From an uncultured Alphaproteobacteria bacterium (GTDB lineage: Bacteria > Pseudomonadota > Alphaproteobacteria > RF32 > CAG-239): a DNA stretch of 64,000 nucleotides. Location of the stretch: assembly GCA_947588655.1 (NCBI GenBank), contig CANPYS010000002.1:11912-75911 (forward strand). The letters run 5' to 3'. The notes below the pieces were generated by a model. It worked only from the letters and a program-made list of their open reading frames with translations, was not told the origin of the DNA and ran no database searches. Positions 1-45,075 of the stretch are shown here, piece by piece; the stretch's first letter is position 1, and the number at the start of each line of letters is the position of its first letter. Made by a program: the position numbers and the translations under genes.

Positions 1-498
1 AGGCGAAATCAAATCAATCACGCGGGTTGTATAGTCTTTTTCGCCGCAGATAATATCAAAATTAAGTTTTTCAGTCGGATACAAAGGCGTTAAGTTATCA
101 AAATTAACACGCAACTTAGATTTTTCAGGATCTTCATAATTAATTCTGTTAATTTTCATTAAAGCAAAATAACGTTCATTATCTTTTGGCGCTCTAATTT
201 CACCCTCAACCGTATCGCCTGTGCGCAAAGAATATTTTTTAACTTGACCTGGCGAAACATAAATATCATCAGGGCTTGCTAAATAATTAGACTTTGCCGA
301 GCGTAAAAACCCAAAGCCGTCTTGCATAACTTCAATAACGCCGTCGCCCTCAATAACATTATTATCGGAAGCAACTTTTTTCATAATGGCAAAAATAAGA
401 TCTTGAACACGCATAGAAGACGCATTATCAACACCCAAATCTTCAGCCCAATTCAACAATTCTTTAGGAGATTTATCCTTTAATTCTTTTATATGCAT
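1..498 (-). CDS. rho: Transcription termination factor Rho, N-terminal part (ORF runs off the 5' window edge)
   Basis: Reverse-strand translation from the ATG at 498-496 reads [15 protein letters not shown]...[46 protein letters not shown]. This matches the Rho N-terminal RNA-binding domain almost position for position (E. coli: ...[43 protein letters not shown]). Confidence 0.93.
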   Translation of the reverse strand, partial: [166 protein letters not shown]

Positions 499-938
499 GG
501 AAACCTTTTATTTGATAAATTAATATAAATTACGAATGTAATGAGCGCTTTATAATACCATTTAATTTAAAAGTCAACACTTTTTATACACCGTTCTTTT
601 TCCTTCTATTTAAATTTAAAATTTTATGTAGTTATTGTATATGATTGTTTATATTGTGGATGCAATTTTTTTAACAGATTAATCAACATTTTCCCCTCTT
701 GTGAATAAAAGATGTATAAATTTAAAATCACAATGAAGATTCAATAGGTTTTTAAAAATTAACAAGGTGTTAATTTTTTGAGTTTTTAACACATTTACCA
801 TTTGTTCATAAATTCTATGCACATGTTGATAAACTTGAGAAAATATTTTTATATTGTCTGAATAAAATGGTAAAATCGTTTCAGAAGGCTAATTTTTTAC
901 ACAGGCAATTTCTATTTTGTGGATAAAAGGCTGAAAGT

Positions 939-1508
939 ATGGAAATCATAGGCATTACAGGGCAAAGTGGCAGCGGCAAAACAACCATTGCTCAAATTTT
1001 GAGAAAAGAGGGCTTTTTGGTCTTAGACATAGATAAATGGTGCCGCCAAATGTATAATGATGCTTTGTTTTTAGAAAAAATAAGAACAAACTTTCCTTCA
1101 GCCTTTGAAAATGGTGTTTTTGATAAAAGAAAATTGAGGCATATTGTTTTTGAAAATCAAGAAAATTTAAAAGTTCTTGAAAGTTTAACGCACCCTTATT
1201 TAAAAGCCAAATTTTTAAAAACAAGGCGTTGCAATGCTTATAAAAATTATGATATTTTTGTAGATATTGCCTTGCTTTATGAAATGGGTTTAGATTGCTT
1301 TTGCACCAAAATCATAAGGGCTTGCGCGCCTTTTGAGGTTAAAATGCAAAGAGTTATAAAGCGTGATAATATTACAAAAGATGCATATAAGAAAATGCTT
1401 ATATATCAAAAAGATGATATAAAAGATGATATATTAGTAAATACGAATAAACCTTTAAACATTTTGAAAACGGATATTTTGAAATTAGTGGAAGAAATAA
1501 TATGTTAA
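939..1508 (+). CDS. coaE: Dephospho-CoA kinase
   Basis: N-terminal P-loop IGITGQSGSGKTT; 189 aa; sits immediately 5' of dnaQ as in many alphaproteobacteria. Confidence 0.88.
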   Translation: MEIIGITGQSGSGKTTIAQILRKEGFLVLDIDKWCRQMYNDALFLEKIRTNFPSAFENGVFDKRKLRHIVFENQENLKVLESLTHPYLKAKFLKTRRCNAYKNYDIFVDIALLYEMGLDCFCTKIIRACAPFEVKMQRVIKRDNITKDAYKKMLIYQKDDIKDDILVNTNKPLNILKTDILKLVEEIIC

Positions 1509-2266
1509 GAGAAATTGTTTTTGATACGGAAACAACAGGTTTTAACCCCGAAGAAGGCGACAAATTGGTTGAAATTGGCGCTGTGGAGCTCATTAACCAT
1601 ATTCCAACAGGTCGCACTTATCATCAATACATCAATCCGGATCGTGAAGTGCCGGAAGAAGTTGTTAAAGTTCATGGTTTAACGACCGAATTTTTAAAAG
1701 ATTATCCAAAAATTGGCGAAGTGGCGCAATCTTTTATAGATTTTGTTGGCGATGACGGCATTTTAGTCGCGCATAACGCCACTTTTGATATGAATTTTAT
1801 TAACTACGAATTTAAGCATAAAGGTTTTAGGACTTTTCCGGCTGATAGGGTGGTAGATACGCTTGAAATTGCTAAGTCCAAATTCCCTGGAGCGCGGAAC
1901 AATCTAGATGCTTTATGCCGTCGGTTTAATATTGATAATTCTTCGCGTACCAAGCACGGCGCTTTACTTGATGCCGAACTTTTGGCGGAGGTTTATTTAG
2001 AGCTTTTGGGCGGCGCTGAACCAAGTATGAATTTAGAAAATGCTAATTTAGAATATTCTAATTTAGAAAAAGCTAATTTAGAAAGAACTAATTTAGAAAG
2101 AACTAATTTAGAAAACGCTAATTTAGAGAATGCTAATTTAGAAAATGCTAATATACAAATCCAAAATTTTCACGAACCGCGCAGTTTTCCTTTAACTGCA
2201 GACGAGGAACAAGCACACGAAACTTTTTTAAAAGAAAAATTAACCGATGCCGTTTGGCTCAAATAA
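1502..2266 (+). CDS. dnaQ: DNA polymerase III epsilon subunit (3'-5' proofreading exonuclease) with a C-terminal pentapeptide-repeat insertion
   Basis: Exo I (VFDTETTGF), Exo II (HNATFDMNFI) and Exo III (HGALLDAELLAEVY) motifs. The C-terminal third reads NLENANLEYSNLEKANLERTNLERTNLENANLENANLENAN, encoded by 15-nt tandem units. Confidence 0.9.
   Translation: MLREIVFDTETTGFNPEEGDKLVEIGAVELINHIPTGRTYHQYINPDREVPEEVVKVHGLTTEFLKDYPKIGEVAQSFIDFVGDDGILVAHNATFDMNFINYEFKHKGFRTFPADRVVDTLEIAKSKFPGARNNLDALCRRFNIDNSSRTKHGALLDAELLAEVYLELLGGAEPSMNLENANLEYSNLEKANLERTNLERTNLENANLENANLENANIQIQNFHEPRSFPLTADEEQAHETFLKEKLTDAVWLK
2029..2163 (+). repeat. 15-bp tandem minisatellite (unit aatttagaaaatgct, about 8 units plus a degenerate unit), in frame within dnaQ; encodes pentapeptide NLENA repeats
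   Basis: Direct reading: aatttagaaaatgct / aatttagaatattct / aatttagaaaaagct / aatttagaaagaact x2 / aatttagaaaacgct / aatttagagaatgct / aatttagaaaatgct. Confidence 0.9.
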
Positions 2267-2926
2267 TTTTAAAATTATCTGATAAACTTCGGTCATATTT
2301 TTACAAAAATAAGGAATATCAAGCTTTTTAAGTTCTGAAAGATATTCTTTTTGATTTTTATGATAAAATCCAAGAAAAGCAATAGGCGTCGCGCCGGCGG
2401 CAAGGGCGGCTTTCAGACCAACAAGAGAATCTTCAACGACAACAGCGTTTTGAGGTTTTTCGCCCATTTTTTCACATGCAAGCAAAAACAAATCGGGTGC
2501 TGGTTTGCCATTTTGAACCATATCGGCGGTAAAAATATGCTTTAGAGGAAAATAATTTTCAATTTGAGCATTTTTTATTTTAAGCATTGTTTTTTCAAAA
2601 ATGCCGCCTGTGGCAATACATTGTTTAATAGGCAATTCAAAAATTTTTTCAATACCGGCGGCGCGTTCAAATTTTTGGTTTAACATAAGTTCAACATCTA
2701 AAGAATTTGCTTCATCCCAAAAGGAATCATCAACTTCAATATGATGTTCCAACAATTTTTGTGCTTTCGTTTTATCGCTCATTCCGCGCAAGGTGCGGTT
2801 AATTTTTTCCAAGTCCCAATCAATGCCAAGTTTAGATTTTAAAAGATACTGCCGATTTTTAAGCCAAAAATCTTCTGTATTGGCAATAACGCCGTCAAAA
2901 TCCCATATCAACAATTTTTTTTGCAT
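2240..2926 (-). CDS. HAD-superfamily hydrolase (beta-phosphoglucomutase-like phosphatase)
   Basis: Motif I LLIWDFDGVIANTE at the N-terminus; later motifs consistent with HAD (…VVVEDSLVGLKAALAAGA…); 228 aa. Confidence 0.7.
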   Translation of the reverse strand: MQKKLLIWDFDGVIANTEDFWLKNRQYLLKSKLGIDWDLEKINRTLRGMSDKTKAQKLLEHHIEVDDSFWDEANSLDVELMLNQKFERAAGIEKIFELPIKQCIATGGIFEKTMLKIKNAQIENYFPLKHIFTADMVQNGKPAPDLFLLACEKMGEKPQNAVVVEDSLVGLKAALAAGATPIAFLGFYHKNQKEYLSELKKLDIPYFCKNMTEVYQIILKLFEPNGIG

Positions 2927-3096
2927 TAAAACCTCGTCAAAAATTGACCTCGCCTAAAGCCCGTAGAAAGCATTTTTAATCAATTTATGATAAAGAGGTT
3001 AAAATTTCATAAAAAAGCGCTCCAAGGGCTTAAAATCGCAAATTTATAAATTTGTTAATAATTTTTGATTAAAATAAAACCCCTGATGAGGTAAAA

Positions 3097-4440
3097 ATGA
3101 CAAATCAAACCATATATGCATTATCCACGGCATGGGGCAAGTCTGGTGTGGCGATTATTCGCATATCGGGGCAAAATGCCAAAGAGGTTGTTCGTTTAAT
3201 GACCAATCTTGAAACAGTGTATTTAAAACCCCGATACGCTTATTTTACGCCCATTTTTCACAATGTTTCACGTGAAACATTAGATAAGGCGTTACTTTTA
3301 TACTTTCAAGCGCCACATTCTTTTACGGGCGAAGATTGTGTTGAAATCCAGTGCCACGGATCAAAAGCGGTTATCACGGCTATTTTAGACAGTTTATCCA
3401 CCCTGCCCGATTTCCGAATGGCAACCCAAGGCGAGTTTACCAAAAGAGCCTTTTTGAACAAAAAAATGGATTTAACAGAGGTTGACGCTCTATTAGATTT
3501 AATTAATTCAGAAACCGAAATACAACGGAAATCCGCGCTTTTGCAGATGGAAGGAAACTTAAAAGAGGTATATAAAAACTGGCGTAGTGAGTTGCTCAAA
3601 ATATATAGCTACTTAGAAGCTTATATAGATTTTCCTGATGAAGAAATACCAAATTCCATAAAAGAATCTATTTTGAACGGTGTATTTAAATTAATTAAAG
3701 AAATAGATGAACATTTTAAAACCGCACATTATAGTGAACGATTACGCGATGGTTTTAGGGTTGTTATTGCTGGACCAACCAACGCCGGCAAATCTAGCCT
3801 TTTGAACTTAATTGCCCAAAGGCAGGCGGCAATCGTATCTGACATTGCAGGCACAACGCGTGACGCTTTAGACATTTATTTAGATGTGGGCGGTTATCCA
3901 GTTATTATAACCGATACGGCGGGTTTAAGGGAGTCTTCGGATAAGATAGAGCAACAAGGCATTGAAATTACAAAAGAAAAAATCAAAGACGCCGACTATA
4001 TTTTAGCCCTTTTTGATGCCTCCAAAGATACGCCGGCGATTTTTAAAAATCTCAAAAAAGAATCTAAAAACAATATATTATATATTGCTAATAAATCCGA
4101 TACTTTAACATTTGAACAGTGTTCAGTATTTGAAAAACAAGGCTGTTTGTTGCTTTCGGCTAAGACCGGAAAAGGGCTTGAAAATTTACTTAAAACACTC
4201 GCAAACCGCATAGAATCAGATTTTTCCGGCGCGGCTTCCCTGCCCTTAACGCGCGCACGTTATCATCAATATTTGCAAAACACGCTCAACGCCTTAAAAG
4301 ACTTTAGCTTTGATAAAGAAATTGAACTTTCGGCGGAAGATATTCGCTTGGCAGCGCGTGAACTTGGCAAAATCACAGGTCAGATTGAAGTAGAAGAAAT
4401 TTTAAATAATATCTTTTCGTCATTTTGTATTGGAAAATAA
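3097..4440 (+). CDS. mnmE: tRNA modification GTPase MnmE (TrmE)
   Basis: 447 aa. G1 motif GPTNAGKSSLLN, G3 DTAGLRE, NKSD G4, C-terminal CIGK tetrapeptide. Followed by mnmG and rsmG. Confidence 0.95.
   Translation: MTNQTIYALSTAWGKSGVAIIRISGQNAKEVVRLMTNLETVYLKPRYAYFTPIFHNVSRETLDKALLLYFQAPHSFTGEDCVEIQCHGSKAVITAILDSLSTLPDFRMATQGEFTKRAFLNKKMDLTEVDALLDLINSETEIQRKSALLQMEGNLKEVYKNWRSELLKIYSYLEAYIDFPDEEIPNSIKESILNGVFKLIKEIDEHFKTAHYSERLRDGFRVVIAGPTNAGKSSLLNLIAQRQAAIVSDIAGTTRDALDIYLDVGGYPVIITDTAGLRESSDKIEQQGIEITKEKIKDADYILALFDASKDTPAIFKNLKKESKNNILYIANKSDTLTFEQCSVFEKQGCLLLSAKTGKGLENLLKTLANRIESDFSGAASLPLTRARYHQYLQNTLNALKDFSFDKEIELSAEDIRLAARELGKITGQIEVEEILNNIFSSFCIGK
3262..3281. promoter_or_regulatory. 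parS: parS centromere-like site (perfect palindrome AATGTTTCACGTGAAACATT) inside mnmE
   Basis: Exact 16-bp core TGTTTCACGTGAAACA matches the ParB-binding consensus; copy 1 of 3 identical copies. Confidence 0.85.
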
Positions 4441-4499
4441 AAAAAGCTTGCAATTTAAAGACATTTTTCTATGATGTGCCTAATTAAAAGGAACTGAAA

Positions 4500-6317
4500 A
4501 TGCAAACAGATAAAGATGTCATAGTTGTTGGCGGCGGTCATGCCGGTTGTGAGGCGGCGGCCGCGGCGGCGCGAACAGGTGCTCAAACGGTTTTAATAAC
4601 GCACAAAATCAGCACCATTGGCGAAATGTCATGCAATCCGGCAATTGGCGGTTTGGGCAAAGGTCATCTTGTGCGTGAAATTGATGCTTTAGACGGACTA
4701 ATGGCGCGCGTGATTGATAAGGCAGGCATTCAGTTTAGAATGCTTAATTCTTCCAAAGGGCCGGCAGTGCGTGGTCCGCGTGCGCAAGCTGATAGGGCTT
4801 TATATAAAAAATATATGCTTGAGGCGCTAAGAGCCGAAAAAAATCTTGAAATTTTAGAAGCCGCGGTTGAGGGTTTGCTCATCAATTCAGATAACAGTGT
4901 TGGCGGTGTCATTTTATCTAACGGACAACAGATTTCGGCAAAGGCGGTTATTTTAACAACAGGCACATTTTTAAACGGCGTGATGTTTGTTGGTCATCAA
5001 ACTTCTGAAGGTGGCAGAATTGGTGACAAATCGTGCAAAGGTATAACACCGTATTTAAATCAGCTTGGGTTAAATTTAGGGCGACTTAAAACAGGCACGC
5101 CCGCGCGATTAAATGGCAAAACAATTCATTGGGACGCGCTTGAAGTGCAATCAGGCGATGAAAACCCCGAGCCATTTTCATACTTAACGGAAAGTTTACC
5201 TCAAAAGCAAATAAACTGTTTCATCACGCACACCAACGAGCGCACACATCAAATTATTCGGGACAATTTTTCCAAATGCGCTTTGTTTTCGGGGCTGATA
5301 AAGGGTGTCGGTCCGCGTTATTGCCCAAGCATTGAGGACAAGCTTATTAAATTTGCGGGCAAAGACAGTCATCAAATTTTCTTAGAGCCTGAGGGTTATG
5401 ATACAGATGTGGTTTATCCAAACGGCATATCCACGTCTTTGCCGGCAGATGTGCAAGACGCGTTTATTCACACCATCAAAGGGCTTGAAGACGTTGAGAT
5501 TTTGCGTTACGCCTATGCCATTGAATACGATTTTGTTGATCCGCAGGAGCTTAACCGTCGGTTAGAACTCAAAAAAGCGCCCAACTTGTTTTTAGCCGGT
5601 CAAATTAACGGCACGACGGGTTATGAAGAGGCGGCGGCGCAAGGTTTGGTAGCGGGTGTCAATGCTGCTTTAAAAGCAATTTCGCCTGAAAAAGAGTTTG
5701 TGATTGACCGTTCAGAGGCTTATATAGGCGTGATGATTGATGATTTAATCAGCAAAGGTGTGGACGAGCCTTATCGTATGTTTACATCGCGTTCTGAATA
5801 CAGGTTATATTTACGCGCGGATAACGCCGATATGCGTTTAACGGAAAAAGGTTATCAAATCGGCTGTGTTGGCGAAAAACGGAACACTGTATTTAAAACG
5901 AAAAAGCAAGATGTTGAAAAGTTAAGAAACTTAGCTCAAACGCTCAAATCAAACGCAATAACTGGTCGCAAAGAAACGCTTTGGCATTTAATGACTTTAA
6001 ATAATGTTTCACGTGAAACATTGTTTAAAACCTTTCCTCAACTTGCTGAATTTTCTGATAAAATTTATGAACAGATTGAAATTGAAGCGCGTTATGAAGG
6101 CTATATGAAGCGCCAACTCGCCGACATTGAAGTTTTCAAAAAAGATGAAAGTCTTAAAATAAGAGAAGACATAGATTATAAAAAAATCGGTGGTTTATCG
6201 CGTGAAATGGTAGATAAACTTAATCGCTTGCGTCCAGAAACAATCGGGGCGGCATCGCGTATTTCAGGGGTCACGCCGGCGGCAATCACGGCGCTTTTGG
6301 GTTATTTGAAAAAATAA
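4500..6317 (+). CDS. mnmG: tRNA uridine 5-carboxymethylaminomethyl modification enzyme MnmG (GidA)
   Basis: 605 aa; N-terminal FAD-binding [14 protein letters not shown]; conserved mnmE-mnmG-rsmG order. Confidence 0.95.
6003..6022. promoter_or_regulatory. parS: parS site (AATGTTTCACGTGAAACATT) inside mnmG
   Basis: Identical 20-bp palindrome; copy 2. Confidence 0.85.
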
Positions 6318-6363
6318 ACCGGAAAGGCGACTTATTTAAAATCGTGTTTATAACTTACAAAGA

Positions 6364-7023
6364 TTGTTTATTAAAGTGGCAAGCCGCGTTATAAATTTTT
6401 TTATGGAAAATTTTATCAAAAAATATAATGTTTCACGTGAAACATTGGCCTCTCTTCAAAGGTATGTAAGCCTTTTGGAAGAATGGCAAAATATGTTTAA
6501 CCTTGTCAGCAAAAACTCGTTACCCGATGTTTGGCAACGTCATATTGCCGATTCGGCGGAACTTTTTCAATATATTGATAAAAAAGCCGGTCTGGTTTAT
6601 GACTTTGGAAGCGGCGCGGGCTTTCCGGCAATTGTTTTAGCGATTATGGCGGCAAAAGAAAAACCCAAACTTAGGTTTTTGCTGATAGAAAGTACCACAA
6701 AAAAAACAGTGTTTTTAAATGCCGTTAAAGAAGCGCTGGTGCTTAAAAATGTATATGTCATCAACGACCGAATTGAAAATTTGAAACTCCAAAAAGCCGA
6801 TTTTATAACCTCGCGCGCCTTAGCGGCGCTTCCCCAACTTTTGGAATATGCCCTGCCCTATACCGAGCTTGAGCGTACAAAGCTGATTTTTCCAAAAGGG
6901 CGCAAATATAGAGGGGAAATAGAAGAGGCCCGAAAGCAATGGTCGTTTACAACAAACGTTTACCGGAACACATCTTCAAATGACGGTGTAATTTTGGTTT
7001 TGGAAGATTTACGGAGAAAATAA
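6364..7023 (+). CDS. rsmG: 16S rRNA (guanine527-N7)-methyltransferase RsmG (GidB)
   Basis: SAM-binding YDFGSGAGFP motif. The likely true start is the ATG at 6403 (MENFIKKYNVSRETL...), the typical alphaproteobacterial GidB N-terminus. Confidence 0.9.
   Translation: MFIKVASRVINFFMENFIKKYNVSRETLASLQRYVSLLEEWQNMFNLVSKNSLPDVWQRHIADSAELFQYIDKKAGLVYDFGSGAGFPAIVLAIMAAKEKPKLRFLLIESTTKKTVFLNAVKEALVLKNVYVINDRIENLKLQKADFITSRALAALPQLLEYALPYTELERTKLIFPKGRKYRGEIEEARKQWSFTTNVYRNTSSNDGVILVLEDLRRK
6427..6446. promoter_or_regulatory. parS: parS site (AATGTTTCACGTGAAACATT) inside rsmG
   Basis: Identical 20-bp palindrome; copy 3. Confidence 0.85.
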
Positions 7024-7791
7024 ATGAAAATTATTGCGGTTGCCAACCGAAAAGGCGGTGTCGGAAAAACAACAACAGCCATAAACATAGCCACAGCCAT
7101 GGCGGCAATTGGCAAAAAAGTTTTGGTGCTTGATTTAGACCCGCAAGGCAACGCCACCACTTCTATGGGTTTGAACAAAAAAACATGCCCTTATTCTTCT
7201 TACGATGTTTTAATTAATGGTGTTGAGCCCTTAAAAGCGGTTAAAACGACAGACATTCCAAACTTTTATATTTTACCGTCTGCCCCTGCCCTTGCCGCCG
7301 CTGAAATTGAAATTGTGAACGCCGCTCAACGCGAATATATTTTAAAACGAATGCTCAAAATGTTGGAAGGGCGCTTTCATTATGTGCTGATAGATTGCCC
7401 GCCTTCGCTCAATTTTATCACAATCAACGCCTTGGTTGCCGCCGATTCGGTGATTGTGCCGCTCCAGTGCGAATTTTTGGCGCTTGAGGGTTTGACTGAT
7501 TTAATTCAAAACATAGACCGAATTAAGAAAAACTTTAACCCGACGCTCAAAGTTCAAGGCATTGTTTTAACAATGTTTGATAAGCGCAACAATTTGAGTC
7601 AAATGGTTGAGGCTGATGTTCGGCGCTACTTTGGCGATTTGGTTTATAAAACCGTTATACCGCGCAGTGTGCGTATATCGGAAGCGCCTTCGCATGGCAA
7701 GCCTGTAATGATTTATGACTTCAAGAGTGTTGGGGCGCAGGCTTACATTCAGTTGGCAAAAGAAGTTTTAACGCGTGAAAAGGAGATATAA
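7024..7791 (+). CDS. parA: Chromosome partitioning ATPase ParA
   Basis: Deviant Walker A KGGVGKTTTA; 255 aa; followed by parB. Confidence 0.93.
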   Translation: MKIIAVANRKGGVGKTTTAINIATAMAAIGKKVLVLDLDPQGNATTSMGLNKKTCPYSSYDVLINGVEPLKAVKTTDIPNFYILPSAPALAAAEIEIVNAAQREYILKRMLKMLEGRFHYVLIDCPPSLNFITINALVAADSVIVPLQCEFLALEGLTDLIQNIDRIKKNFNPTLKVQGIVLTMFDKRNNLSQMVEADVRRYFGDLVYKTVIPRSVRISEAPSHGKPVMIYDFKSVGAQAYIQLAKEVLTREKEI

Positions 7792-7793
7792 AA

Positions 7794-8669
7794 ATGCCGT
7801 CAAATAACAACAAACATGGATTGGGCAGGGGCTTAAATGCGCTTTTCGGGGACGAAAGCTTTAATTTAGACGAGGTTTTAAACGCCGATGACAAAGGCAT
7901 TAAAACGGTATCCATTGAAAAATTGCGCCCTTGTGCTTTTCAACCGCGCAAAAGCTTTGATGAAGAGGCTATAAAATCTTTAGCGCAATCCATAAAAGAG
8001 AAGGGGGTTTTGCAGCCCATTTTGGTACGTCCCAAAAACGGATTATATGAAATTGTGGCGGGTGAACGCCGTTACAGAGCCGCCAAAATGGCAGGGTTAA
8101 TTGAACTGCCTGTTATTGAAAAAGAGCTTAAAGACAACGAGGTTTTAGAAGTAGCACTGGTTGAAAACCTTGTCCGAAAAGATTTACTCCCCTTAGAAGA
8201 GGCGCACGGACTTAATTGTTTGATTAATCAGTTTAATTATACGCAAGAACGCCTTTCGGAAATTGTTGGCAAATCCAGAAGCAACATCACAAACATCTTG
8301 CGTTTGCTAACTTTGCCGGCATCTGTTCAAAAATATTTAGACGAGGGCAAATTAACCTCTGGACATGCGCGCGCCTTGGTTGGGCTTGAAAATGCCGCCG
8401 AGTTAGCCGAGCAAATTATAGGGCAGGGGCTAAGCGTCCGTCAGGTGGAAGAAATTATCAGCAAAATCAAAAAACAGGGCAACAACCCCAAGCCCAAAAA
8501 GCCCGCCATTGTAAAAGATAAGGAATTATGCCAAATTGAGCGCGATTTATCGCAAAAAATTGGAGTTCGGGTTATCATTAAAGCCGGTCAAAATGGGCGA
8601 GGGCGCGTTGTTTTGGAATACAAACAGCTTGCCGAGCTTGAAAATATTATTGATAAGCTTGAAAAATAA
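7794..8669 (+). CDS. parB: Chromosome partitioning protein ParB
   Basis: ParB box GERRYRAA, HTH region and C-terminal dimerisation domain; 291 aa. Confidence 0.93.
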   Translation: MPSNNNKHGLGRGLNALFGDESFNLDEVLNADDKGIKTVSIEKLRPCAFQPRKSFDEEAIKSLAQSIKEKGVLQPILVRPKNGLYEIVAGERRYRAAKMAGLIELPVIEKELKDNEVLEVALVENLVRKDLLPLEEAHGLNCLINQFNYTQERLSEIVGKSRSNITNILRLLTLPASVQKYLDEGKLTSGHARALVGLENAAELAEQIIGQGLSVRQVEEIISKIKKQGNNPKPKKPAIVKDKELCQIERDLSQKIGVRVIIKAGQNGRGRVVLEYKQLAELENIIDKLEK

Positions 8670-8710
8670 AAACAGAGTCTTTTCAAGCGCTGAACGGTGT
8701 ATTTAAAAAT

Positions 8711-8744
8711 CGCGGACATAAAAATTGTGTGCGCGATTTTTTAA
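8711..8744. terminator. Bidirectional intrinsic terminator between parB and recX
   Basis: aaaaatcgcg-(loop)-cgcgatttttt: GC stem flanked by an A-run and a T-run. Confidence 0.5.
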
Positions 8745-9298
8745 AAGTCGTTATCGTCATCAGCTGAGCTTTGCAAAATTTCCGAAACAACGTCATAATC
8801 AAAACCGGCGCGGATTAATGTCGCCATATCTTTTTGCCGATTCGCACGGCGGATTTCCTCATCAAAACGAAAAGGCCCAATCTTTTTCTTTTTTGCAAAT
8901 TTGAGCGCCATTTCTTTAACATCATAACCCTGATTTTCTAAAATCTGTTGCGTTAAATCTGCGTTAATGCCCTTTTGACGCAATTTAAGCTCAATATAAC
9001 GCGCGGGCTTGCCGGCGGCGAGGTAATCGCGCGTTTTAAGTTCGGCATAACGCGCGTCATCAAGATAACCCCAATGCTGAAAATCGGCCAAAACTTCTTC
9101 AATCCAGCCCAAAGCCTCGGTTTTATCAAACGAAGGATCAGCGCGCGCATAATCTGAAACGCGCCGCTTTAAAACCTGCCGCAGGTTTTCGGTTGAAGAT
9201 TCAAAGCGCTTCAAATAATAAAGCCCAATGTTTTTAAGCCGAGATTTTGTAATTTTGCGAGGCATTTTGCCGCGATTTTGAATACTTGAATCTTTCAC
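8741..9298 (-). CDS. recX: Recombination regulator RecX
   Basis: 185 aa; three-repeat helical RecX pattern (…LYYLKRFESSTENLRQVLKRR… ARYAELKTRDYL…); start may be the internal ATG (MPRKITK). Confidence 0.75.
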   Translation of the reverse strand: MKDSSIQNRGKMPRKITKSRLKNIGLYYLKRFESSTENLRQVLKRRVSDYARADPSFDKTEALGWIEEVLADFQHWGYLDDARYAELKTRDYLAAGKPARYIELKLRQKGINADLTQQILENQGYDVKEMALKFAKKKKIGPFRFDEEIRRANRQKDMATLIRAGFDYDVVSEILQSSADDDNDF

Positions 9299-9363
9299 TT
9301 GAAAAACCTTTCGTTTTGCATTAAATTTAGTTTGTACGAATTTATTATAAAGGATTTATCACA

Positions 9364-21799: not shown

Positions 21800-24709
21800 A
21801 TGCAAAATCATATCTTTAATATTCCGGCAAGCTGTTCTTTTGCAGACACTCTCGCCACGCGCTTTTTGAAAGATATTGAGGATAATCCGCAAAGCTTGTC
21901 GTCGTGTTTGTTTTTGTTGCCAAATCGGCGCTCCGCATTATCTCTTCGCGATGCTTTTGTGCGCCTTTTTGGGACGAAACCCGCTATTTTGCCAAAGATG
22001 ATTCCTATTGCCGATATTGATGAAGACGAGGTTCTGTTTGGTGGCGCCGATAATGCCGATGTGCTTAAAAATCTGCCGCCAGCTATATCTTCAACCGAAA
22101 GGCTCTTTTTGCTTGCTAAGCTCATTAATGCCCGACCAACACAATACGGCTTGCCTGAAATGTCGTATGCGCAAGCGTTAGCGCTTTCTGAAGAACTTTG
22201 CAAACTGATGGATAATGTTTATAATCAGCAGTTAAGTTTTGATAAGCTCCAAGATATTGTGCCGGCGCAATATGCCGTACATTGGCAAGAAACGCTCCGC
22301 TTTTTGAAAATTATCACGCATTGGTGGCCTGAAATTTTGGCGCAAAGAGGTGTGTGCGATGTCGCCCAACGCCGCAACGCCCTTTTAGACGCTCAAGCCG
22401 ATGTTTGGGCACGGCATTTTCCAAAGCATAAAGTTATTGCCGCCGGTATTGAGGCTTGTTTTCCAGGGCTTGTGCGGATTTTGAAAGTTATTGCGCAAAT
22501 GCCTCAAGGCGAAATTTATTTTTATGGACTTGACCGCTTTTTAGATGAAAATTCGTGGCAGATGATTGATGAAAATCATCCACAATATCAGCATAAGCTA
22601 ATATTAGAAGCTTTGAATATTCAGCGCGCAGATGTTACCGATGTCGTCCAAGCGCAAAATTTGCCGCGCGAGCAATTTGTGGCTGAAATTATGCGCCCCG
22701 CCGCCGACACCCTTCGTTGGCAAGAGCTTGCAGGTAAAGAATTGCCGTCAGAGGCTGTTAAAAATCTGCACTGCATCAATTGTTTTGATAGTAGGCAAGA
22801 GGCTTTAAGCATTGCGCTTTTGCTCCGCGAAACCCTAAACACGCCCGAAAAAACCGCCGCTTTGGTCACGACTGATCGGCAATTGGCGCGCCGTGTTTGC
22901 GCTGAAATGAGGCGCTGGAACATTGAAGTTGACGACTCCGCTGGTAAGCCTTTGCACCTTTGCCCGATTGGCATTTATCTGCGCCTTATTCCGAATTTGA
23001 TTGAAACAGATTTTAGCGCCAAGGCAATTTTAGCGCTTGTTAAAAATCCGTTTGTTCGGCTTCAAACTCATCGGGTTGAGTTGTTGCAACAAATTAGGCT
23101 TTGGGAGTATCAAGAACGCAAGCCTGTTTTTGATATTTCGCAAAAAAATGCTCTGCCCGAGCCTTTGTGGCTTAAGACTTTAAAAGAAAATTACGCGCCG
23201 TTCGCCGCGCTTTTTAAAGAAAAAACGGCCGATTTTAAAACTCTTTTGACAGCACATCTCAAACTTGCCGAATCGCTTGCGGCTGATACGGAAAAATCAG
23301 GGGCGCAAAATTTGTGGCAAGGCGATGACGGCCGTATGGCGGCACAGTGGCTGAGTGAAATATTAGAAAAAGCTCATGAAATTGGCGCGATTGAAACAAG
23401 TCAATACGCTTTTGTTTTGACGGCTTTGCTTTCAACACAAACCGTGCGCCCGATTTATGGCACGCATCCGCGGCTTAAAATTTTAGGGCCGATTGAGGCG
23501 CGTTTTAATCAGTTTGACCGCGTGATTATTGGCGGCTTAAACGAAGGCGTTTGGCCGATGTTGCCTTCTAGCGATGGTTGGCTTTCGCGTCCGATGAAAA
23601 AAGAGTTTGGGCTGATGATGCCTGAAACCGCTATTGGCGCCGCCGCCGCTGATTTTGCCCGTCTGCTCTCTGCGCCAGAAGTTTATTTAACACGCGCGGA
23701 GCGTTGTGGCGGTACGCCGGCGAATAAGTCGCGTTGGTGGCTGAGGCTTGAGACAGTTTTAGAAGCTTATGGTCTGCCCAAAGACGCTCTTTCTGAAAAT
23801 GTTTATTATCCGTTGGCGCTTGCTTTGGATAACCCCATTAAAACCGAAACCCCCAAGCGGCCTATGCCCAAGCCAAGCATTCAACATCGCCCGAAAGAAC
23901 TTTCAGCAAGCGCGGTTGAAGTTTTGATGCGCGATCCTTATGAAATTTATGCCCGATATATTTTGAAATTGTATCCGCTTGAAGATATTGATTCTTCTCT
24001 TTCCATGCGCGAGTATGGTTCTGTTGTTCACAAGGTTTTGGAGCGTTTTAATCGGGCTTATCCTGAAAAATTGCCCGAAAACGCCGAAGATATTATGCTT
24101 TCCATGGGGCTTAAACTTTTTGATGAAATGGGCGTTGAACCCGAAAGCAAAGCCTTTTGGTTGCCACGGTTTGAAAAGACTGTTCGCTTTATTGCTCATC
24201 ATGAAAAAATTTATCGGCAAAACATTGTTAAAGTTGTGCCAGAAGTAGCCGGCTCGTTTTCGTTTGATACTAAAAACGGCAAATTTACCATTAAGGCGCG
24301 CGCTGATCGGCTTGATTTGACAACCGAAGGAAAAATTAATATTATTGATTACAAAACAGGCAAAATCCGCACAAAAGCCGAGGTTTTTAAAGGCTATGCG
24401 CCACAGTTGCCGATTGAGGGGCTTATTGTTCGTGAAGGCGGTTTTCAAACAAATGAATTTTCGTTTCAAACAACTGATGTCGGACGTTTGATTTATTGGC
24501 AACTTGGTGAAAAAACATCTGAAATTGACGCTGATGAAAAAAATTTGCTCAACGACACTTTAACGCGCTTGAAAATGTTAATTGAACCATTTGCAGATTT
24601 TGACACACCTTATCCGGCGCGACCAAACCCGAAACATTTGCTTGAATACGCCGATTATGAACATTTGGCGCGCGTGCAAGAATGGGCAAGCGGAGGCGAT
24701 GATGAATAA
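21800..24709 (+). CDS. addB: Double-strand break repair protein AddB (alphaproteobacterial type)
   Basis: 969 aa, immediately upstream of and overlapping addA; C-terminal PD-(D/E)xK-like nuclease region (…IIDYKTGK…). Confidence 0.8.
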   Translation: MQNHIFNIPASCSFADTLATRFLKDIEDNPQSLSSCLFLLPNRRSALSLRDAFVRLFGTKPAILPKMIPIADIDEDEVLFGGADNADVLKNLPPAISSTERLFLLAKLINARPTQYGLPEMSYAQALALSEELCKLMDNVYNQQLSFDKLQDIVPAQYAVHWQETLRFLKIITHWWPEILAQRGVCDVAQRRNALLDAQADVWARHFPKHKVIAAGIEACFPGLVRILKVIAQMPQGEIYFYGLDRFLDENSWQMIDENHPQYQHKLILEALNIQRADVTDVVQAQNLPREQFVAEIMRPAADTLRWQELAGKELPSEAVKNLHCINCFDSRQEALSIALLLRETLNTPEKTAALVTTDRQLARRVCAEMRRWNIEVDDSAGKPLHLCPIGIYLRLIPNLIETDFSAKAILALVKNPFVRLQTHRVELLQQIRLWEYQERKPVFDISQKNALPEPLWLKTLKENYAPFAALFKEKTADFKTLLTAHLKLAESLAADTEKSGAQNLWQGDDGRMAAQWLSEILEKAHEIGAIETSQYAFVLTALLSTQTVRPIYGTHPRLKILGPIEARFNQFDRVIIGGLNEGVWPMLPSSDGWLSRPMKKEFGLMMPETAIGAAAADFARLLSAPEVYLTRAERCGGTPANKSRWWLRLETVLEAYGLPKDALSENVYYPLALALDNPIKTETPKRPMPKPSIQHRPKELSASAVEVLMRDPYEIYARYILKLYPLEDIDSSLSMREYGSVVHKVLERFNRAYPEKLPENAEDIMLSMGLKLFDEMGVEPESKAFWLPRFEKTVRFIAHHEKIYRQNIVKVVPEVAGSFSFDTKNGKFTIKARADRLDLTTEGKINIIDYKTGKIRTKAEVFKGYAPQLPIEGLIVREGGFQTNEFSFQTTDVGRLIYWQLGEKTSEIDADEKNLLNDTLTRLKMLIEPFADFDTPYPARPNPKHLLEYADYEHLARVQEWASGGDDE

Positions 24710-27700
24710 TATTGAGCAAGAAACAAACGCTTTAAGTCAAATTGCGACAAGGCAACAACAAAAAGCCGCTAATCCTAAGCTTTCTGTTTGGGTGCAAGCT
24801 TCCGCCGGCACAGGCAAGACAAAAGTTCTGTCTGACCGCGTGTTGCGTCTTTTGTTGCAAAATGTTAATCCGTCACGAATTTTGTGCCTAACTTATACCA
24901 AAGCCGCCGCCGTTGAAATGAACGCGCGTATTGCGAATCGGCTTTCACACTGGGCTGTCGCGCCACAAAAAGATCTTATAAAAGACTTGCAATCTTTGGT
25001 TTCAGAAAATATGTCTGAAAAAGAATGCCAACAACTTGTTAAACGCGCACGCATTTTGTTTGCCTTGCTTTTAGATGTTCCCGGTGGGCTTAAAATTCAG
25101 ACAATTCATAGTTTTTGCCAAGAAATTTTAAAGCGCTTTCCAATAGAATCGGGCGTTTCACCTTATTTTAACGTTTTGGACGACCGCGCCGCCAAAGAAG
25201 CCCTTAACACCGCCGCCACAGAACTTTTAAGCCGTATGGAAACCGCGCCACATACGCCGGAAGCACAGGCAATGGCGTTTTTGACGACGCAGATTAAAGA
25301 ATTTTCTTTTAATAAATTAATGTCGCTTTTGATTGAAAAACGCAGTGCTTTTGCCGATATTTTAAGCGCTTATGATTGTATTCAAGACTTTGAAAAAGCT
25401 CTGATGACTCGGCTCGGACTTAAGCAAATTAAATCTTTGGCTGAGGCTGAAAAAGATTTTTATCAGACGCTTGATATAGAAAAATTGCGCCAAATCGCCG
25501 ATGTTTTGGGGCAAAGCGCCTCTGTAAACGATAAAAAAGCCGCGCGCATTATATTAGAACAAACTAATTTAGATATTGCTAAATTAGAAAATGCTAAATT
25601 AGATATTGCTAATTTAGGAAATGCTAAATTAGGAAATACTAATTTAGAAAACGCTAAATTAGAAAATACTAAATTAGGAAATGCTAAATTAGAAAACGCT
25701 AATTTAGAGAATGCTAATTTAGGAAATGCTAATTTAGGAAATACTAAATTAGAAAACGCTAATTTAGAAAACGCTAATTTAGAAAATGCTAATTTAGAAA
25801 ATGCTAAATTAGAAAATGCTAATTTAGGAAATACTAATTTAGAAAACACTAATTTAGAAAACACTAATTTAGAAAACACTAATTTAGAAAATGCTAATTT
25901 AGAAAATGCTAATTTAGAGAATGCTAATTTAGAAAATGCTAATCAATTTGATTTTGACACGTTTAAAGGCGTCTTTTTAACGGGCGATGATGAAATTCGC
26001 GATGCGATAGCCACAAAATCGTTTGTTAAAAAATTTCCGTTCGTGGGCGAATTTTTGGATAAACTGGCGCAAGATGTTTTGGCATTTGTAATGTATCTTA
26101 AACGGCTTAATTTGTTTTTATCTACGCGCGCGGTAATGATTATTGCCGGTACATTAGGAAATGCTTATACAGCCTTTAAGCGCCAAAACGCCGAGCTTGA
26201 TTATGAAGACCTTATCCACTTAACAAAGCGTCTGCTTGAAAATGAGGGCGCGGCATCATGGGTGCTATATAAACTTGACGGCGGCATTAGTCATATTTTG
26301 ATTGACGAGGCGCAAGATACTTCGCCCCAACAATGGGCTATTATCAAGGCTTTAAGCGCCGAGTTTTTTGACGGCGCAGGGCAGTCTGATGAAACGCGAA
26401 CAGTTTTTGCCGTCGGCGATCGGAAGCAATCTATTTATAGTTTTCAGGGCGCAGATCCTGCCGCTTTTGATGAAATGTCAAAATATTTTGCTCAAAAAAG
26501 CACCTCTTTTGAAAAAGTGCGGCTTGATGTTTCGTTTAGGTCAACGGCGGCGGTTTTGGAAACGGTTAATCATTTGTTTGATATGCCAACAGCTCAATCC
26601 GGCGTGGTTTTAGAAGATGAAAAAGTGTCGCACCTGCCCTTTAGGCTCGGGCAAGGCGGCCGCGTTGAAATTTGGCCCTTGATTGAACCCGAAGATGATG
26701 AAGAAGATGTTTGGTATCCGCCTGTAGAGCGCGCGCACAAGCCTTTAGCGCGAACACGGCTCGCCGAAAAAATTGCGCAAACTATTCAGCAAATGGTGGC
26801 GCGGCAAGAGGTTTTGGAATCAAAAGGGCGGGCGCTCCAATATAGCGATTTTATGGTGCTGGTGCAACGGCGCAACGCTTTTATGGACGACTTTATCCGC
26901 GCGTGCAAGCAAATTGGCGTGAATATTGCCGGCGCCGATAAAATTAAGCTTTTAGAGCATATTGCCGTTCAAGATTTGATTTCTTTGGCAAAGTTTTTGC
27001 TTTTGCCTGAAGATGATTTGAGCTTGGCGGAAGTCTTAAAATCGCCTTTGTTCGGGCTTGACGATGACGACTTAATGCAACTTTGCATTGACCGTGGCGC
27101 AACCGCATTGTGGCAAAGGTTGAAAACAAATTCAAAATATGCTCCCGCTACTGAAACGCTTTCTGCGCTTTTAGCCAAGGCAGATTATATTCGTCCGTTT
27201 GAGCTTTTTTCATACGTTTTAAGCGTTTATGGCGGGCGGCAAAAATTTGTGGCGCGCTTGGGCAAAGAAACCGAGGACGCCTTAGATGAATTTATGAATT
27301 TGACGCTTGATTTTGAGCGTGAACATACACCCTCGCTTCAGGCTTTTTTGCAATGGCTTGAAGAAGACGATGTTGAAATTAAGCGCGAAACAGAACAACC
27401 CCAAGCCAATGCTGTGCGCATTATGACGGTTCATGGTTCAAAAGGCTTGCAAGCGCCTGTCGTTATTTTGCCTGATACCGTGCGTGTGCCAAACATTAAG
27501 CGAGAGGCGGCGCTTTTGGTTGAAGATAATCAGCGCGCTTATTTTCCGCTTAATGCCGATGGTTATGAAGATATTTGCAATGCACTTTATGAAACCGAAA
27601 AGCAAAAAGAATATGACGAATATCGGCGACTTTTATACGTTGCCTTAACGCGCGCGGAAGATAGGCTTTATGTTTGCGGCTATAAATCTAAAAACAAAAT

Positions 27701-28433
27701 TAATGAGCAATGCTGGTATAATTTGTGCGCAGAAACGCTTAAAACTTGGGGCAAAGAAAAAGACGGTAATTTGGTTTATGAATCGGAACAACTCGTTGCG
27801 CCCAAAACAGCCTTAAATCAGCTGGAAGAAACGCCTCAAATTAAGCTCCCTTCATGGACTTTGGAAGACGCTCCTCAAGCCGAGCCTTTGGCGCGTCCTT
27901 ATACGCCCTCAAAGCCTGATGATGACGAAATTGCCGCAGCATCGCCTTTAAATGATGAGGGTTTTTATTATAAGCGCGGGTTGCTTATTCATAAGTTGTT
28001 GCAGTTGTTGCCTTCTGAAATTGACAAGGCGGCGCGCGAAAATTTAATGCGAATCTTTTTTAAGAAAAACGCCCCTGAACTTTCGGAAAAAACTCAAAAT
28101 CAGCTTGTGTCTGAAATTTCCGCCTTGTTTGATAATCCCTCGTTTGCCTTTATTTTTGGCGCTTGTTCGCAAGCCGAAGTACCTATTATTGGGCGCGTGG
28201 AAAACAAAATTGTTTCTGCGCAAATTGACCGTCTGATTGTTCTTAATGACAGGGTTGTTGTGGTTGATTTCAAAACAAATCGTCCTGCCGCGCAAGACAT
28301 TGCCCAAGTGCCGGCGGTTTATAAAAATCAGCTTTCAACTTATCAAAAACTTGTGGCGCAAATTTATCCCGACAGGCCTGTTGAAGGCTACATTTTGTGG
28401 ACAAATACCGGCGATTTGATGAAAGTGATTTAA
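24582..28433 (+). CDS. addA: Double-strand break repair helicase/nuclease AddA, carrying a ~130-aa pentapeptide-repeat insertion
   Basis: UvrD/Rep motif I (QASAGTGKTKVLSDRVLRLL), motif II (ILIDEAQDTSP), C-terminal RecB-type nuclease (…VVVDFKTNRP…). True start probably ATG 24699 (MMNNIEQ), overlapping the addB stop. Residues ~330-465 are (N/K)L(E/G/D)(N/I)(A/T) repeats. Confidence 0.88.
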   Translation: MNHLQILTHLIRRDQTRNICLNTPIMNIWRACKNGQAEAMMNNIEQETNALSQIATRQQQKAANPKLSVWVQASAGTGKTKVLSDRVLRLLLQNVNPSRILCLTYTKAAAVEMNARIANRLSHWAVAPQKDLIKDLQSLVSENMSEKECQQLVKRARILFALLLDVPGGLKIQTIHSFCQEILKRFPIESGVSPYFNVLDDRAAKEALNTAATELLSRMETAPHTPEAQAMAFLTTQIKEFSFNKLMSLLIEKRSAFADILSAYDCIQDFEKALMTRLGLKQIKSLAEAEKDFYQTLDIEKLRQIADVLGQSASVNDKKAARIILEQTNLDIAKLENAKLDIANLGNAKLGNTNLENAKLENTKLGNAKLENANLENANLGNANLGNTKLENANLENANLENANLENAKLENANLGNTNLENTNLENTNLENTNLENANLENANLENANLENANQFDFDTFKGVFLTGDDEIRDAIATKSFVKKFPFVGEFLDKLAQDVLAFVMYLKRLNLFLSTRAVMIIAGTLGNAYTAFKRQNAELDYEDLIHLTKRLLENEGAASWVLYKLDGGISHILIDEAQDTSPQQWAIIKALSAEFFDGAGQSDETRTVFAVGDRKQSIYSFQGADPAAFDEMSKYFAQKSTSFEKVRLDVSFRSTAAVLETVNHLFDMPTAQSGVVLEDEKVSHLPFRLGQGGRVEIWPLIEPEDDEEDVWYPPVERAHKPLARTRLAEKIAQTIQQMVARQEVLESKGRALQYSDFMVLVQRRNAFMDDFIRACKQIGVNIAGADKIKLLEHIAVQDLISLAKFLLLPEDDLSLAEVLKSPLFGLDDDDLMQLCIDRGATALWQRLKTNSKYAPATETLSALLAKADYIRPFELFSYVLSVYGGRQKFVARLGKETEDALDEFMNLTLDFEREHTPSLQAFLQWLEEDDVEIKRETEQPQANAVRIMTVHGSKGLQAPVVILPDTVRVPNIKREAALLVEDNQRAYFPLNADGYEDICNALYETEKQKEYDEYRRLLYVALTRAEDRLYVCGYKSKNKINEQCWYNLCAETLKTWGKEKDGNLVYESEQLVAPKTALNQLEETPQIKLPSWTLEDAPQAEPLARPYTPSKPDDDEIAAASPLNDEGFYYKRGLLIHKLLQLLPSEIDKAARENLMRIFFKKNAPELSEKTQNQLVSEISALFDNPSFAFIFGACSQAEVPIIGRVENKIVSAQIDRLIVLNDRVVVVDFKTNRPAAQDIAQVPAVYKNQLSTYQKLVAQIYPDRPVEGYILWTNTGDLMKVI
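25563..25940 (+). repeat. 15-bp tandem minisatellite (~25 units of aatttagaaaatgct and variants), in frame within addA
   Basis: Direct reading: actaatttagatattgct aaattagaaaatgct aaattagatattgct aatttaggaaatgct … aatttagaaaatgct. Confidence 0.92.
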
Positions 28434-28504: not shown

Positions 28505-28930
28505 TTACCGCCCTTGAAAGCGATTAAAATTGTTTGCTAATTTCCGATACATGTTTGACACGGGTGCCCAATGCAGTTTTTTCGGCGCTGGTTCAGGAGC
28601 AAGATGTTTTTTAAGGTACTCTGGATCTTTATGCCTTTCCTCAAGTATTTCTTTAAAATTCCGCACATATATTTCTTCCACTTGACGAATAATATCAGCA
28701 AGAGCACGACTTTTATCTTCAAACTCTGTATAACCTTGCTCCTCTAACATTTTAAAAAACTTCTCTCTCTCTTCTACGGATGATTTAAAATTCGGCCAAA
28801 TACCGCTTGAACGCGGTCCCATAGTTCTCCAACCGCCCACAAATCCACATTTATGGGTCATCTTCAAGTGCTCCATATCAAGATTCCAGTCTTTGATATA
28901 TTCCTCATATGGTGGTGGGGTGTATTGCAT
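28505..28930 (-). CDS. Hypothetical protein (141 aa) in a low-GC insertion
   Basis: Intact ORF MQYTPPPYEEYIKDWNLDMEHLKMTHKCGFVGGW…; AT-rich surroundings; no recognisable motif. Confidence 0.45.
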   Translation of the reverse strand: MQYTPPPYEEYIKDWNLDMEHLKMTHKCGFVGGWRTMGPRSSGIWPNFKSSVEEREKFFKMLEEQGYTEFEDKSRALADIIRQVEEIYVRNFKEILEERHKDPEYLKKHLAPEPAPKKLHWAPVSNMYRKLANNFNRFQGR

Positions 28931-29059
28931 TTTCTACCTTCCTTACCTGTATATATACATATTTTTTGAAATTTGTCAAGCATTTTTTAATCTTTTTACG
29001 GTTGATTTTAGAGATAAAATATAGTATAATAGGTTTATATAATTTTAAGAGAATACCCC

Positions 29060-32417: not shown

Positions 32418-32418
32418 T

Positions 32419-33537: not shown

Positions 33538-33547
33538 AAATTATCTC

Positions 33548-35224: not shown

Positions 35225-35241
35225 CTTCCAGTTTTCCAGTC

Positions 35242-38056: not shown

Positions 38057-38072
38057 TTACGTTCCTTTTAGC

Positions 38073-40515: not shown

Positions 40516-40581
40516 AATTTTTTAACCATCATACATACCTTAAAACAAATAATCAAGCTCAACAAAGCACTTATTACCAAC

Positions 40582-45034: not shown

Positions 45035-45075
45035 ATTCTAAATTAGTATTTCTAAATTAGTATTTCAAATTTTGT
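45035..45075 (-). repeat. Intergenic remnant of the 15-bp minisatellite (two units, reverse orientation)
   Basis: ttctaaattagtatt tctaaattagtattt is the reverse complement of aatttagaaatacta x2; it starts directly after the eno stop. Confidence 0.7.

Follow-up and report, generated by a model that had tools for sequence, protein, structure and literature searches.

We analyzed a 64,000-nt stretch of DNA (called the window in the following; contig CANPYS010000002.1) from an uncultured alphaproteobacterium. Within this window, a 15-bp tandem repeat lies in frame inside two genes, dnaQ, encoding the ε proofreading subunit of DNA polymerase III, and addA, encoding subunit A of the double-strand-break repair helicase-nuclease. 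The genes and features at the two sites are, in the order of their coordinates:

1502–2266, plus strand: dnaQ, DNA polymerase III ε proofreading subunit, 254 amino acids (assigned from the RNase_T domain and matches to ε structures)
2018–2035, plus strand: EPSMNL, residues 173–178 of DnaQ, aligned with the clamp-binding motif QTSMAF (182–187) of E. coli ε
2030–2152, plus strand: dnaQ array, 8 units plus AAT, read as NLENA NLEYS NLEKA NLERT NLERT NLENA NLENA NLENA
21800–24709, plus strand: addB, partner of addA, 969 amino acids, without the repeat (Pfam PDDEXK_1, E 6.5e-24)
24702–28433, plus strand: addA, double-strand-break repair helicase-nuclease subunit A, 1243 amino acids from the ATG at 24702 (assigned from Pfam domains and Foldseek)
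25463–25879, minus strand: antisense open reading frame (ORF) of 138 amino acids with SKLAF repeats, across the addA array
25563–25943, plus strand: addA array, 25 units plus GCTAAT, residues 288–413, of the form (A/T)(N/K)L(E/G/D)(N/I)

The 15-bp unit and its two host genes

The unit GCT AAT TTA GAA AAT is translated as A-N-L-E-N, and its frame is identical in the dnaQ and addA arrays. An initial annotation, made from the sequence alone, had described this in-frame minisatellite as common to both genes, and Tandem Repeats Finder recovered it with a period of 15 at 2030–2152 in dnaQ (8.2 copies, 87% matches, score 169) and at 25564–25943 in addA (25.3 copies, 87% matches, score 522). At both sites the units are arranged head-to-tail, measure a multiple of three and stay in frame. 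The 15-mer AATTTAGAAAATGCT was found 49 times when up to 3 mismatches were allowed, compared to 11.3 ± 3.4 times in shuffled sequences, and none of 100 shuffles reached 49. Its core CTAAWTTAG occurs 35 times in the whole window, where 0.58 occurrences are expected. The G+C content of the arrays is 20–22% versus 40–44% in the host genes (0.20 versus 0.40 in the remainder of dnaQ, 0.22 versus 0.44 in addA).

The dnaQ array is followed by the decayed units ANIQI QNFHE, which reach to ~2176. Within the addA units, the variable positions are 1 (A/T), 6 (N/K), 11 and 12 (E/G/D), 14 (N/I) and 15 (synonymous), and the CTAA.TTAG core is constant across the units, its synonymous sites included. Extending the locus by ~10 kb of sequence revealed no additional array.

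In every unit, TAA or TAG closes the other two frames of each strand, leaving one open frame per strand. The unit can therefore survive within genes only in the ANLEN frame or in the antisense A-F-S-K-L frame. For this reason, we rejected the common reading frame of the two arrays as a sign of protein-level selection. Phase variation was likewise rejected, since a 15-bp unit never shifts the frame. The antisense ORF at 25463–25879 owes its existence to the one frame of the minus strand that TAA and TAG leave open, and it is most likely not a gene. The FSKLA reading of the minus strand, from which a symmetry at the level of the protein code had been deduced, is thus real, but it is a trivial by-product of the quasi-palindromic core CTAAWTTAG and of the stops in the other frames.

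Outside the arrays, only three copies of CTAAWTTAG exist in the window, at 45036–45071 and 45357–45365, versus the 0.58 expected for the window as a whole. The first of these sites is an intergenic 14-bp repeat on the minus strand with 2.6 copies (ATACTAATTTAGAA on the minus strand; TTCTAAATTAGTAT), located between the stop codon of the enolase gene and a terminator-like hairpin and identical in another strain (L053). The second is a core copy, CTAAATTAG, inside the neighboring HAD hydrolase gene. The intergenic repeat could be a relic or a seed of the minisatellite, of unproven kinship to the arrays, or else a protein-binding site.

The dnaQ product has a DEDDh exonuclease domain, a linker and a conserved C-terminal tail (H239, F242, W252), which identifies it as ε. 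The RNase_T domain spans residues 5–165 (Pfam, E 7.7e-41), and the E. coli ε structures 2gui, 1j53 and 5fku match residues 2–173 with E ~1e-49 in an alignment that covers residues 6–186 of E. coli ε. The exonuclease domain ends at residue 173. The array begins at residue 177 and fills the linker up to the conserved tail, which agrees with the placement given by the initial annotation. Repeat-free orthologs have 228–239 amino acids versus 254 here, and the linker, counted from the alignment, is roughly doubled. In the EPSMNL segment, P174 and M176 are nearly invariant among orthologs and L178 is invariant; the repeat opens with AAT TTA (N177-L178), the two codons that also close this segment. 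Judging from its alignment with the E. coli motif, EPSMNL probably works as a clamp-binding motif here. Both the clamp-binding motif of E. coli ε and a flexible linker after it have been described (PMC3642679).

The addA product combines an SF1A UvrD-like helicase with a C-terminal RecB-type nuclease (Pfam UvrD-helicase, UvrD_C and PDDEXK_1, PD-(D/E)XK). Its gene directly follows addB, in a gene order that is the same in the sister strain. Top Foldseek matches of the model were B. subtilis AddA (4cei_A) and RecB, a profile match was obtained to 3u44_A (E 1.9e-51), and homologs carry the name AddA in their source databases. Motif I (GTGKT, residues 36–40) and motif II (DEAQD, 535–539) are invariant. 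The array, at residues 288–413, lies between these two motifs, as had been noted from the sequence, and belongs to the 1B accessory domain. There it takes the place of a loop that varies by 6–10 residues among orthologs; B. subtilis AddA has a 7-residue indel of its own at the equivalent site, near residue 270. The profile alignment places the insert near residues 265–275 of B. subtilis AddA. The 1B domain is the 'arm' whose tip contacts duplex DNA in AddAB (PMC3321194).

Just downstream of addA, ~1.5 kb (28814–30303) are missing from the sister strain (L001), and this segment is therefore a strain-specific insertion or deletion. It carries most of an ORF at 29060–30364, whose product of 434 amino acids has no Pfam match and forms a protein cluster of its own.

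Both arrays sit where additional length is tolerated, one in the flexible ε linker between the position of the clamp-binding motif and the α-binding C-terminal tail, the other in a variable loop of AddA.

Variation of the arrays between strains and lineages

For comparing strains we used contigs from short-read metagenome assemblies with 2–9x coverage, representing a few strains of one uncultured alphaproteobacterial species. Arrays were present in all sampled strains of this species. The flanking DNA is 98.2–98.7% identical between strains, yet the tracts differ. For DnaQ, four alleles with 7 or 8 units were found, with the remaining protein being 100% identical:

Window and P0241, 8 units: MNLEN ANLEY SNLEK ANLER TNLER TNLEN ANLEN ANLEN
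P0001, 7 units: MNLEN ANLEY SNLEK ANLER TNLEK TNLEN ANLEN
P0242, 7 units: MNLEN ANLEY ANLER TNLEN ANLEK TNLEN ANLEN
P0243, 7 units: MNLEN ANLEK ANLER TNLEN ANLEN ANLEN ANLEN

The 8-unit allele was seen again in four further samples and the P0243 allele in two. Because alleles recur across samples in this way, they are real and stable over short times. For AddA, the window has 25 units, whereas two independent assemblies have 22 that are ordered differently, and the flanks differ by 12–13 substitutions in 1117 residues. A comparison between strains, as called for by the initial annotation, thus yielded what is expected of a coding variable number tandem repeat (VNTR), a unit number and order that are polymorphic (7/8 in DnaQ, 25/22 in AddA) between conserved flanks. 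One further contig (L063, 5184–5735) ends exactly inside the dnaQ array, after MNLENANLE, as the repeat breaks short-read assemblies.

Outside the arrays, strong purifying selection acts on both host genes, which are clearly functional. The ratio of nonsynonymous to synonymous polymorphism (pN/pS) was 0.03–0.08 in the flanks of AddA and 0.056 in AddB, and between strains the DnaQ flanks differ by 0 nonsynonymous versus 4–11 synonymous changes.

We searched the 120 best homologs of DnaQ and the 120 best homologs of AddA for the Pentapeptide family of Pfam (PF00805; curated cut-off 20.2 bits) and found it only in clusters of the same species (97% identity for DnaQ, 96% for AddA). The next relatives, which are without arrays, are ~69–71% identical in DnaQ (BLASTP) and at most 61% identical in AddA. 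Repeat-free AddA homologs range from 1112 to 1148 amino acids in length.

Between alleles, entire units are gained or lost and a few unit variants are redistributed, a pattern that marks slippage or unequal exchange. Replication slippage or unequal recombination would lengthen and shorten the arrays. The addA array contains N-type cores (CTAATTTAG) and K-type cores (CTAAATTAG), which are reverse complements of each other; therefore, neighboring units can pair as perfect 9-bp stems. Folded as single-stranded DNA, the addA array reached −54 kcal/mol versus −26 kcal/mol in shuffled sequences (z = −7.9). No comparable single-stranded structure was found for the dnaQ array (z = −0.4), which is without K-type units. 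Hairpins formed by the quasi-palindromic core would aid instability in addA, the array to which this support is limited.

Origin and possible function of the repeat tracts

The 15-nt consensus unit is identical in both genes even though GCT (0.23) and TTA (0.22) are non-preferred codons, and the chance of meeting the identical five codons for ANLEN is ~0.013. Furthermore, the two arrays end in the same 36 nt, down to a synonymous GAG. Together with the shared G+C content of 20–22%, the common non-preferred-codon consensus and the identical 3′ ends suggest a DNA ancestry common to both arrays rather than convergence. The atypical residues of the dnaQ array, Y in unit 2 and R in units 4 and 5, occupy positions at which Y and R are also present in orthologs without the repeat (MNLDSKDNEY...KIDRV in L064; VLERTYRAPRSF in P0029), and this array looks as if it had partly grown from native linker sequence. 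The addA array is flanked by unit-like native words as well, ATA TTA GAA (ILE) before it and AAT..TTT GAT (N.FD) after it. The unit would have been born or homogenized in one of the genes and copied into the other at the short native homologies TTAGAA and AATTT, unless both received it from a common A+T-rich source. Between the two genes, dnaQ would be the better candidate for the source.

We therefore consider the arrays a lineage-specific, hypervariable and slippage-driven coding minisatellite, that is, an in-frame VNTR, which is young, is tolerated at permissive sites of two essential or repair enzymes, and whose copies share DNA ancestry. We put the probability of this reading at roughly 0.6. 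Tolerated selfish slippage had been named from the start as an alternative to a functional role, and it is the option that the evidence favors. The encoded tract would be a solvent-exposed appendage, either disordered or forming a short β-solenoid, which is tolerated rather than selected for a function. It is possibly a pentapeptide-repeat domain caught at birth.

Several points weigh against this reading. The direction and the mechanism of the transfer are hypothetical, and with TTAGAA-like seeds native to both sites, partly independent births are conceivable. The survey of the unit covered ~75 kb of the genome, and other genes may contain it as well. The copy number of the 381-bp addA array derives from short-read assemblies and is possibly imprecise, although two independent assemblies contain the identical 22-unit array. 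The case for tolerance and against function argues from absence and draws on the few strains available for one species. That both hosts act in DNA metabolism may not be a coincidence. Finally, the variation within the arrays fits selection for the pentapeptide-repeat fold, since the inward-facing positions are conservative (L is invariant; otherwise only A, T or S) and the outward-facing positions vary. This conserved pattern fits a palindrome constraint at the DNA level and a constraint by the fold equally well, and the two are inseparable because unit variants spread by duplication and not as independent events.

An arguable, if unlikely, alternative to shared ancestry is that both arrays were born in place. 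Slippage would have started from native NL(E/D)-like seeds (MNLE, where the clamp-binding motif of ε would lie; ILEQ ... NQFDF in AddA), followed by convergence on one unit. The native unit-like sequences flanking both arrays, which match conserved residues, are consistent with such an origin, and so are the ancestral Y and R positions retained in the 5′ units of the dnaQ array. In addition, ANLEN units with identical codons exist in unrelated pentapeptide-repeat genes of A+T-rich organisms, meaning that the DNA word can recur. When genome contigs were scanned with the unit, the 50 matches listed included single occurrences in such genes from A+T-rich taxa (cyanobacteria, clostridia, a Rickettsiales protein), besides a chance match in a recN-like gene; the species of the window was not represented among these 50. 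Convergence would, however, have had to produce an identical 15-nt consensus despite non-preferred codons (P ~0.013 given the peptide) as well as identical terminal 36 nt with the same synonymous variant, and both events would have been confined to one young lineage.

By sequence, the tracts are bona fide pentapeptide repeats. Residues 177–215 of DnaQ scored 43.8 bits against PF00805 and the AddA tract scored 92.5 bits, well above the cut-off of 20.2. AddA also passes the thresholds of Pentapeptide_4 (59.4 versus 38) and Pentapeptide_3 (37.2 versus 27). Solved pentapeptide-repeat structures match the arrays with E values of 1e-12 to 1e-24, namely 4yfo and 4yc5 (designed 'beta1' solenoids), 2j8k (Np275/Np276), 3du1 (All3740) and 2o6w (Rfr). 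Hence, the family proposed by the initial annotation was borne out, but the β-helix that it had proposed as well was not predicted by AlphaFold2. With a 56-sequence alignment of AddA residues 1–666, the helicase was modeled well (mean predicted local distance difference test, pLDDT, of 79), and the insert (residues 325–413) appeared as helix or coil with pLDDT <50 and without a β-helix, which is a weak test as only two sequences cover the insert. Predicted alone and without an alignment, the AddA tract formed one long helix with pLDDT 93 in the best of five models, compared to pLDDT 39–71 in the others. The single long helix is regarded as a typical single-sequence artefact and not as evidence for a helix. 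In view of the strong sequence similarity to solved solenoids, a β-helix may form nonetheless. Acidic residues outnumber basic ones in both tracts, with 19 D+E versus 8 K+R in AddA and 8 versus 3 in DnaQ. Our search of the literature found no report of pentapeptide repeats in ε or AddA.

Functional modules are another reading of the tracts, one that we judge quite unlikely; for a DNA mimic that modulates fidelity and recombination, the support is limited to composition and context. In this reading, the tracts would fold as acidic right-handed quadrilateral β-helices and act as built-in DNA mimics or as rigid spacers that tune the geometry of ε, clamp and polymerase and the contact between the AddA arm and the duplex. 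The scores above the Pfam Pentapeptide threshold, the matches to 4yfo, 4yc5, 2j8k and 3du1, the preserved inward-facing and variable outward-facing positions, and the acidic composition would all fit such modules. Both hosts bind DNA, in the case of AddA with the 1B arm touching the duplex (PMC3321194), and the arrays are kept in every strain seen. On the other hand, AlphaFold2 gave no β-helix, the 8–9 units of the dnaQ tract amount to about two coils, at four units per coil, and come without capping elements, and the number and order of units drift freely between very close strains. Moreover, the arrays are missing from all other relatives found, and the conserved positions are those of the palindromic core in the DNA, so that a cause at the DNA level is equally possible. 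A more far-reaching version, which appears improbable to us, is that the minisatellite moves between genes and builds β-solenoid, DNA-mimic-like modules. These would serve as a strain-variable regulator of proofreading and double-strand-break processing (acting, for example, on the duplex grip of AddAB or on its sensitivity to phage-encoded DNA-mimic inhibitors), with a repeat domain born by slippage in an essential enzyme.

An equally improbable origin is a foreign one, in which illegitimate recombination brought in a fragment of an A+T-rich pentapeptide-repeat gene (of a phage or of another bacterium, for instance) that then expanded and spread. The G+C content of the arrays (20–22% versus 40–44% in their hosts) and their codons, atypical for the genome, would agree with this, and metagenomes and A+T-rich genomes do contain pentapeptide-repeat genes that stand alone and have ANLENANLEN tracts encoded by the same DNA. 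In a metagenome scan we obtained three contigs, which had either stand-alone genes of this family or short arrays. However, no donor was found, and the best matches elsewhere extend over short stretches and belong to pentapeptide-repeat proteins of the ordinary type, whose units are heterogeneous. The amplification of any A+T-rich seed would lower the G+C content without transfer, and the dnaQ array retains ancestral linker residues. When the AddA array by itself was searched against 5.8 billion proteins, the matches were limited to two small pentapeptide-repeat proteins of the ordinary type, probably since low-complexity words are not indexed. The C-terminal 104 residues of DnaQ were compared with a representative library of 1.84 billion proteins to look for further ε subunits with such inserts, and the best 150 matches were all long multi-repeat proteins (413–4980 amino acids). 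One metagenome contig of the Joint Genome Institute (JGI; L056, 86–1826) contains ~100 copies of a related 15-bp unit, ATGCTAATTTAAAAA. These form two adjacent stand-alone pentapeptide-repeat genes (220 and 201 amino acids), followed by a 13-bp repeat with 17 copies.

That the arrays are an assembly or sequencing artefact can practically be dismissed: short-read metagenome contigs at low coverage, the contig terminating within the dnaQ array and an addA array longer than a typical read would allow for it, but the arrays lie at the same sites in at least 8 independent assemblies from several samples, with identical alleles across samples and intact reading frames in every copy, and the dnaQ array measures just 108–123 bp.

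Comparison with other repeats and known systems

The window also contains other coding repeats. A 99-bp tandem repeat with 3.3 copies and 71% matches (51229–51553) lies inside an ORF at 51123–51647. The 33-residue repeats encoded there (NGWY.LQT.DG.ALYRAD.SLVADKLL.C) have no Pfam match at E 0.001 and are unrelated to the 15-bp unit. An 18-bp tandem repeat with 2.4 copies and 92% matches (36454–36496) lies inside an ORF on the minus strand (35242–36789). Its product has 515 amino acids versus 508 in the sister strain and may represent another length-polymorphic coding repeat. A type IVb-like pilus cluster extends over ~30891–42126, where the annotation of the sister strain lists T2SSE ATPases, T2SSF, a secretin, and PilO-like, TcpQ-like and bundlin-like proteins. 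Gene neighbors in the region further include coaE-dnaQ, trmE, gidA, gidB, parAB, dciA and F0 ATP synthase genes. This neighborhood is indicative of an alphaproteobacterium, and so are the names under which homologs are recorded ('MAG: Alphaproteobacteria bacterium'). From the gene order uvrB, rho, coaE, dnaQ, trmE, gidA, gidB, parA, parB (window 1–9300; L058 1–4400), the window presumably lies near the chromosomal replication origin.

If our interpretation as a young, tolerated minisatellite is true, the two genes illustrate, in a clean case from nature, how a family of structural repeats can arise. A slippage-prone unit spells the pentapeptide consensus and expands in conserved enzymes, and close strains hold the intermediate states. 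They would also reveal, as an experiment done by nature, to what extent the ε tether and the AddA 1B arm can be lengthened, and provide a strain-typing marker for an uncultured species. Should the tracts be functional, they would represent the first case of pentapeptide-repeat modules being incorporated into a replicase subunit and into a recombination helicase.

Like known pentapeptide repeat proteins (PF00805; Rfr fold; MfpA, Qnr, AlbG, Np275/Np276 and the designed 'beta1' solenoids), the tracts consist of tandem A(D/N)LXX units above the Pfam threshold, with a central L, a small residue two positions before it and acidic outward-facing positions. They differ from these proteins in being neither stand-alone nor terminal; instead, a polymerase subunit and a helicase each contain such a tract internally, as a young and nearly perfect array. 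The tracts are also polymorphic in unit number, and any DNA mimicry by them is hypothetical. In DNA-mimicking proteins of the MfpA/Qnr type, a dimeric rod whose negative surface resembles DNA binds gyrase or another DNA enzyme.

Rickettsia palindromic elements (RPEs) were reportedly described by Ogata et al. in 2000 as selfish DNA inserted in frame in protein-coding genes. The arrays studied here are not single palindromic elements of 100–150 bp, as they are composed of 15-bp tandem units with a 9-bp quasi-palindromic core. Within the surveyed ~75 kb, two genes contain the unit, and a single intergenic site is a doubtful further case. The arrays and RPEs are both alphaproteobacterial, lineage-specific and palindrome-containing DNA inside conserved genes that are not destroyed by it (PMC1779305). 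RPEs are dispersed single elements of 100–150 bp with many copies (PMC1779305). PARCELs share with the arrays the tandem coding repeats with dyad symmetry in the DNA, the similar repeat peptides in open frames on both strands and the variable copy number (PMC2996958). They are, however, built on a 25-residue motif, lie in ORFs of unknown function that are often membrane-targeted, and are associated with mobile elements; they are neither pentapeptide repeats nor located in housekeeping enzymes.

Low-complexity inserts occur in conserved proteins of A+T-rich genomes such as that of Plasmodium. The tracts in DnaQ and AddA resemble these as slippage-prone, A+T-rich and asparagine-rich sequences that are tolerated in loops of essential proteins. 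Unlike them, they form a strict 5-residue structural repeat, contain no homopolymer and are common to two genes.

Intragenic VNTRs of bacteria are usually found in surface or secreted proteins. Here, in contrast, one unit is found in two cytoplasmic DNA-metabolism enzymes and encodes a recognized structural repeat family. The insertion in dnaQ lies in a tether that is already flexible and non-conserved in E. coli ε (PMC3642679). In their architecture, the dnaQ and addA arrays correspond to the intragenic tandem repeats of Legionella pneumophila, which likewise consist of in-frame head-to-tail units with a length that is a multiple of three and a copy number that varies between strains (PMC2639597).

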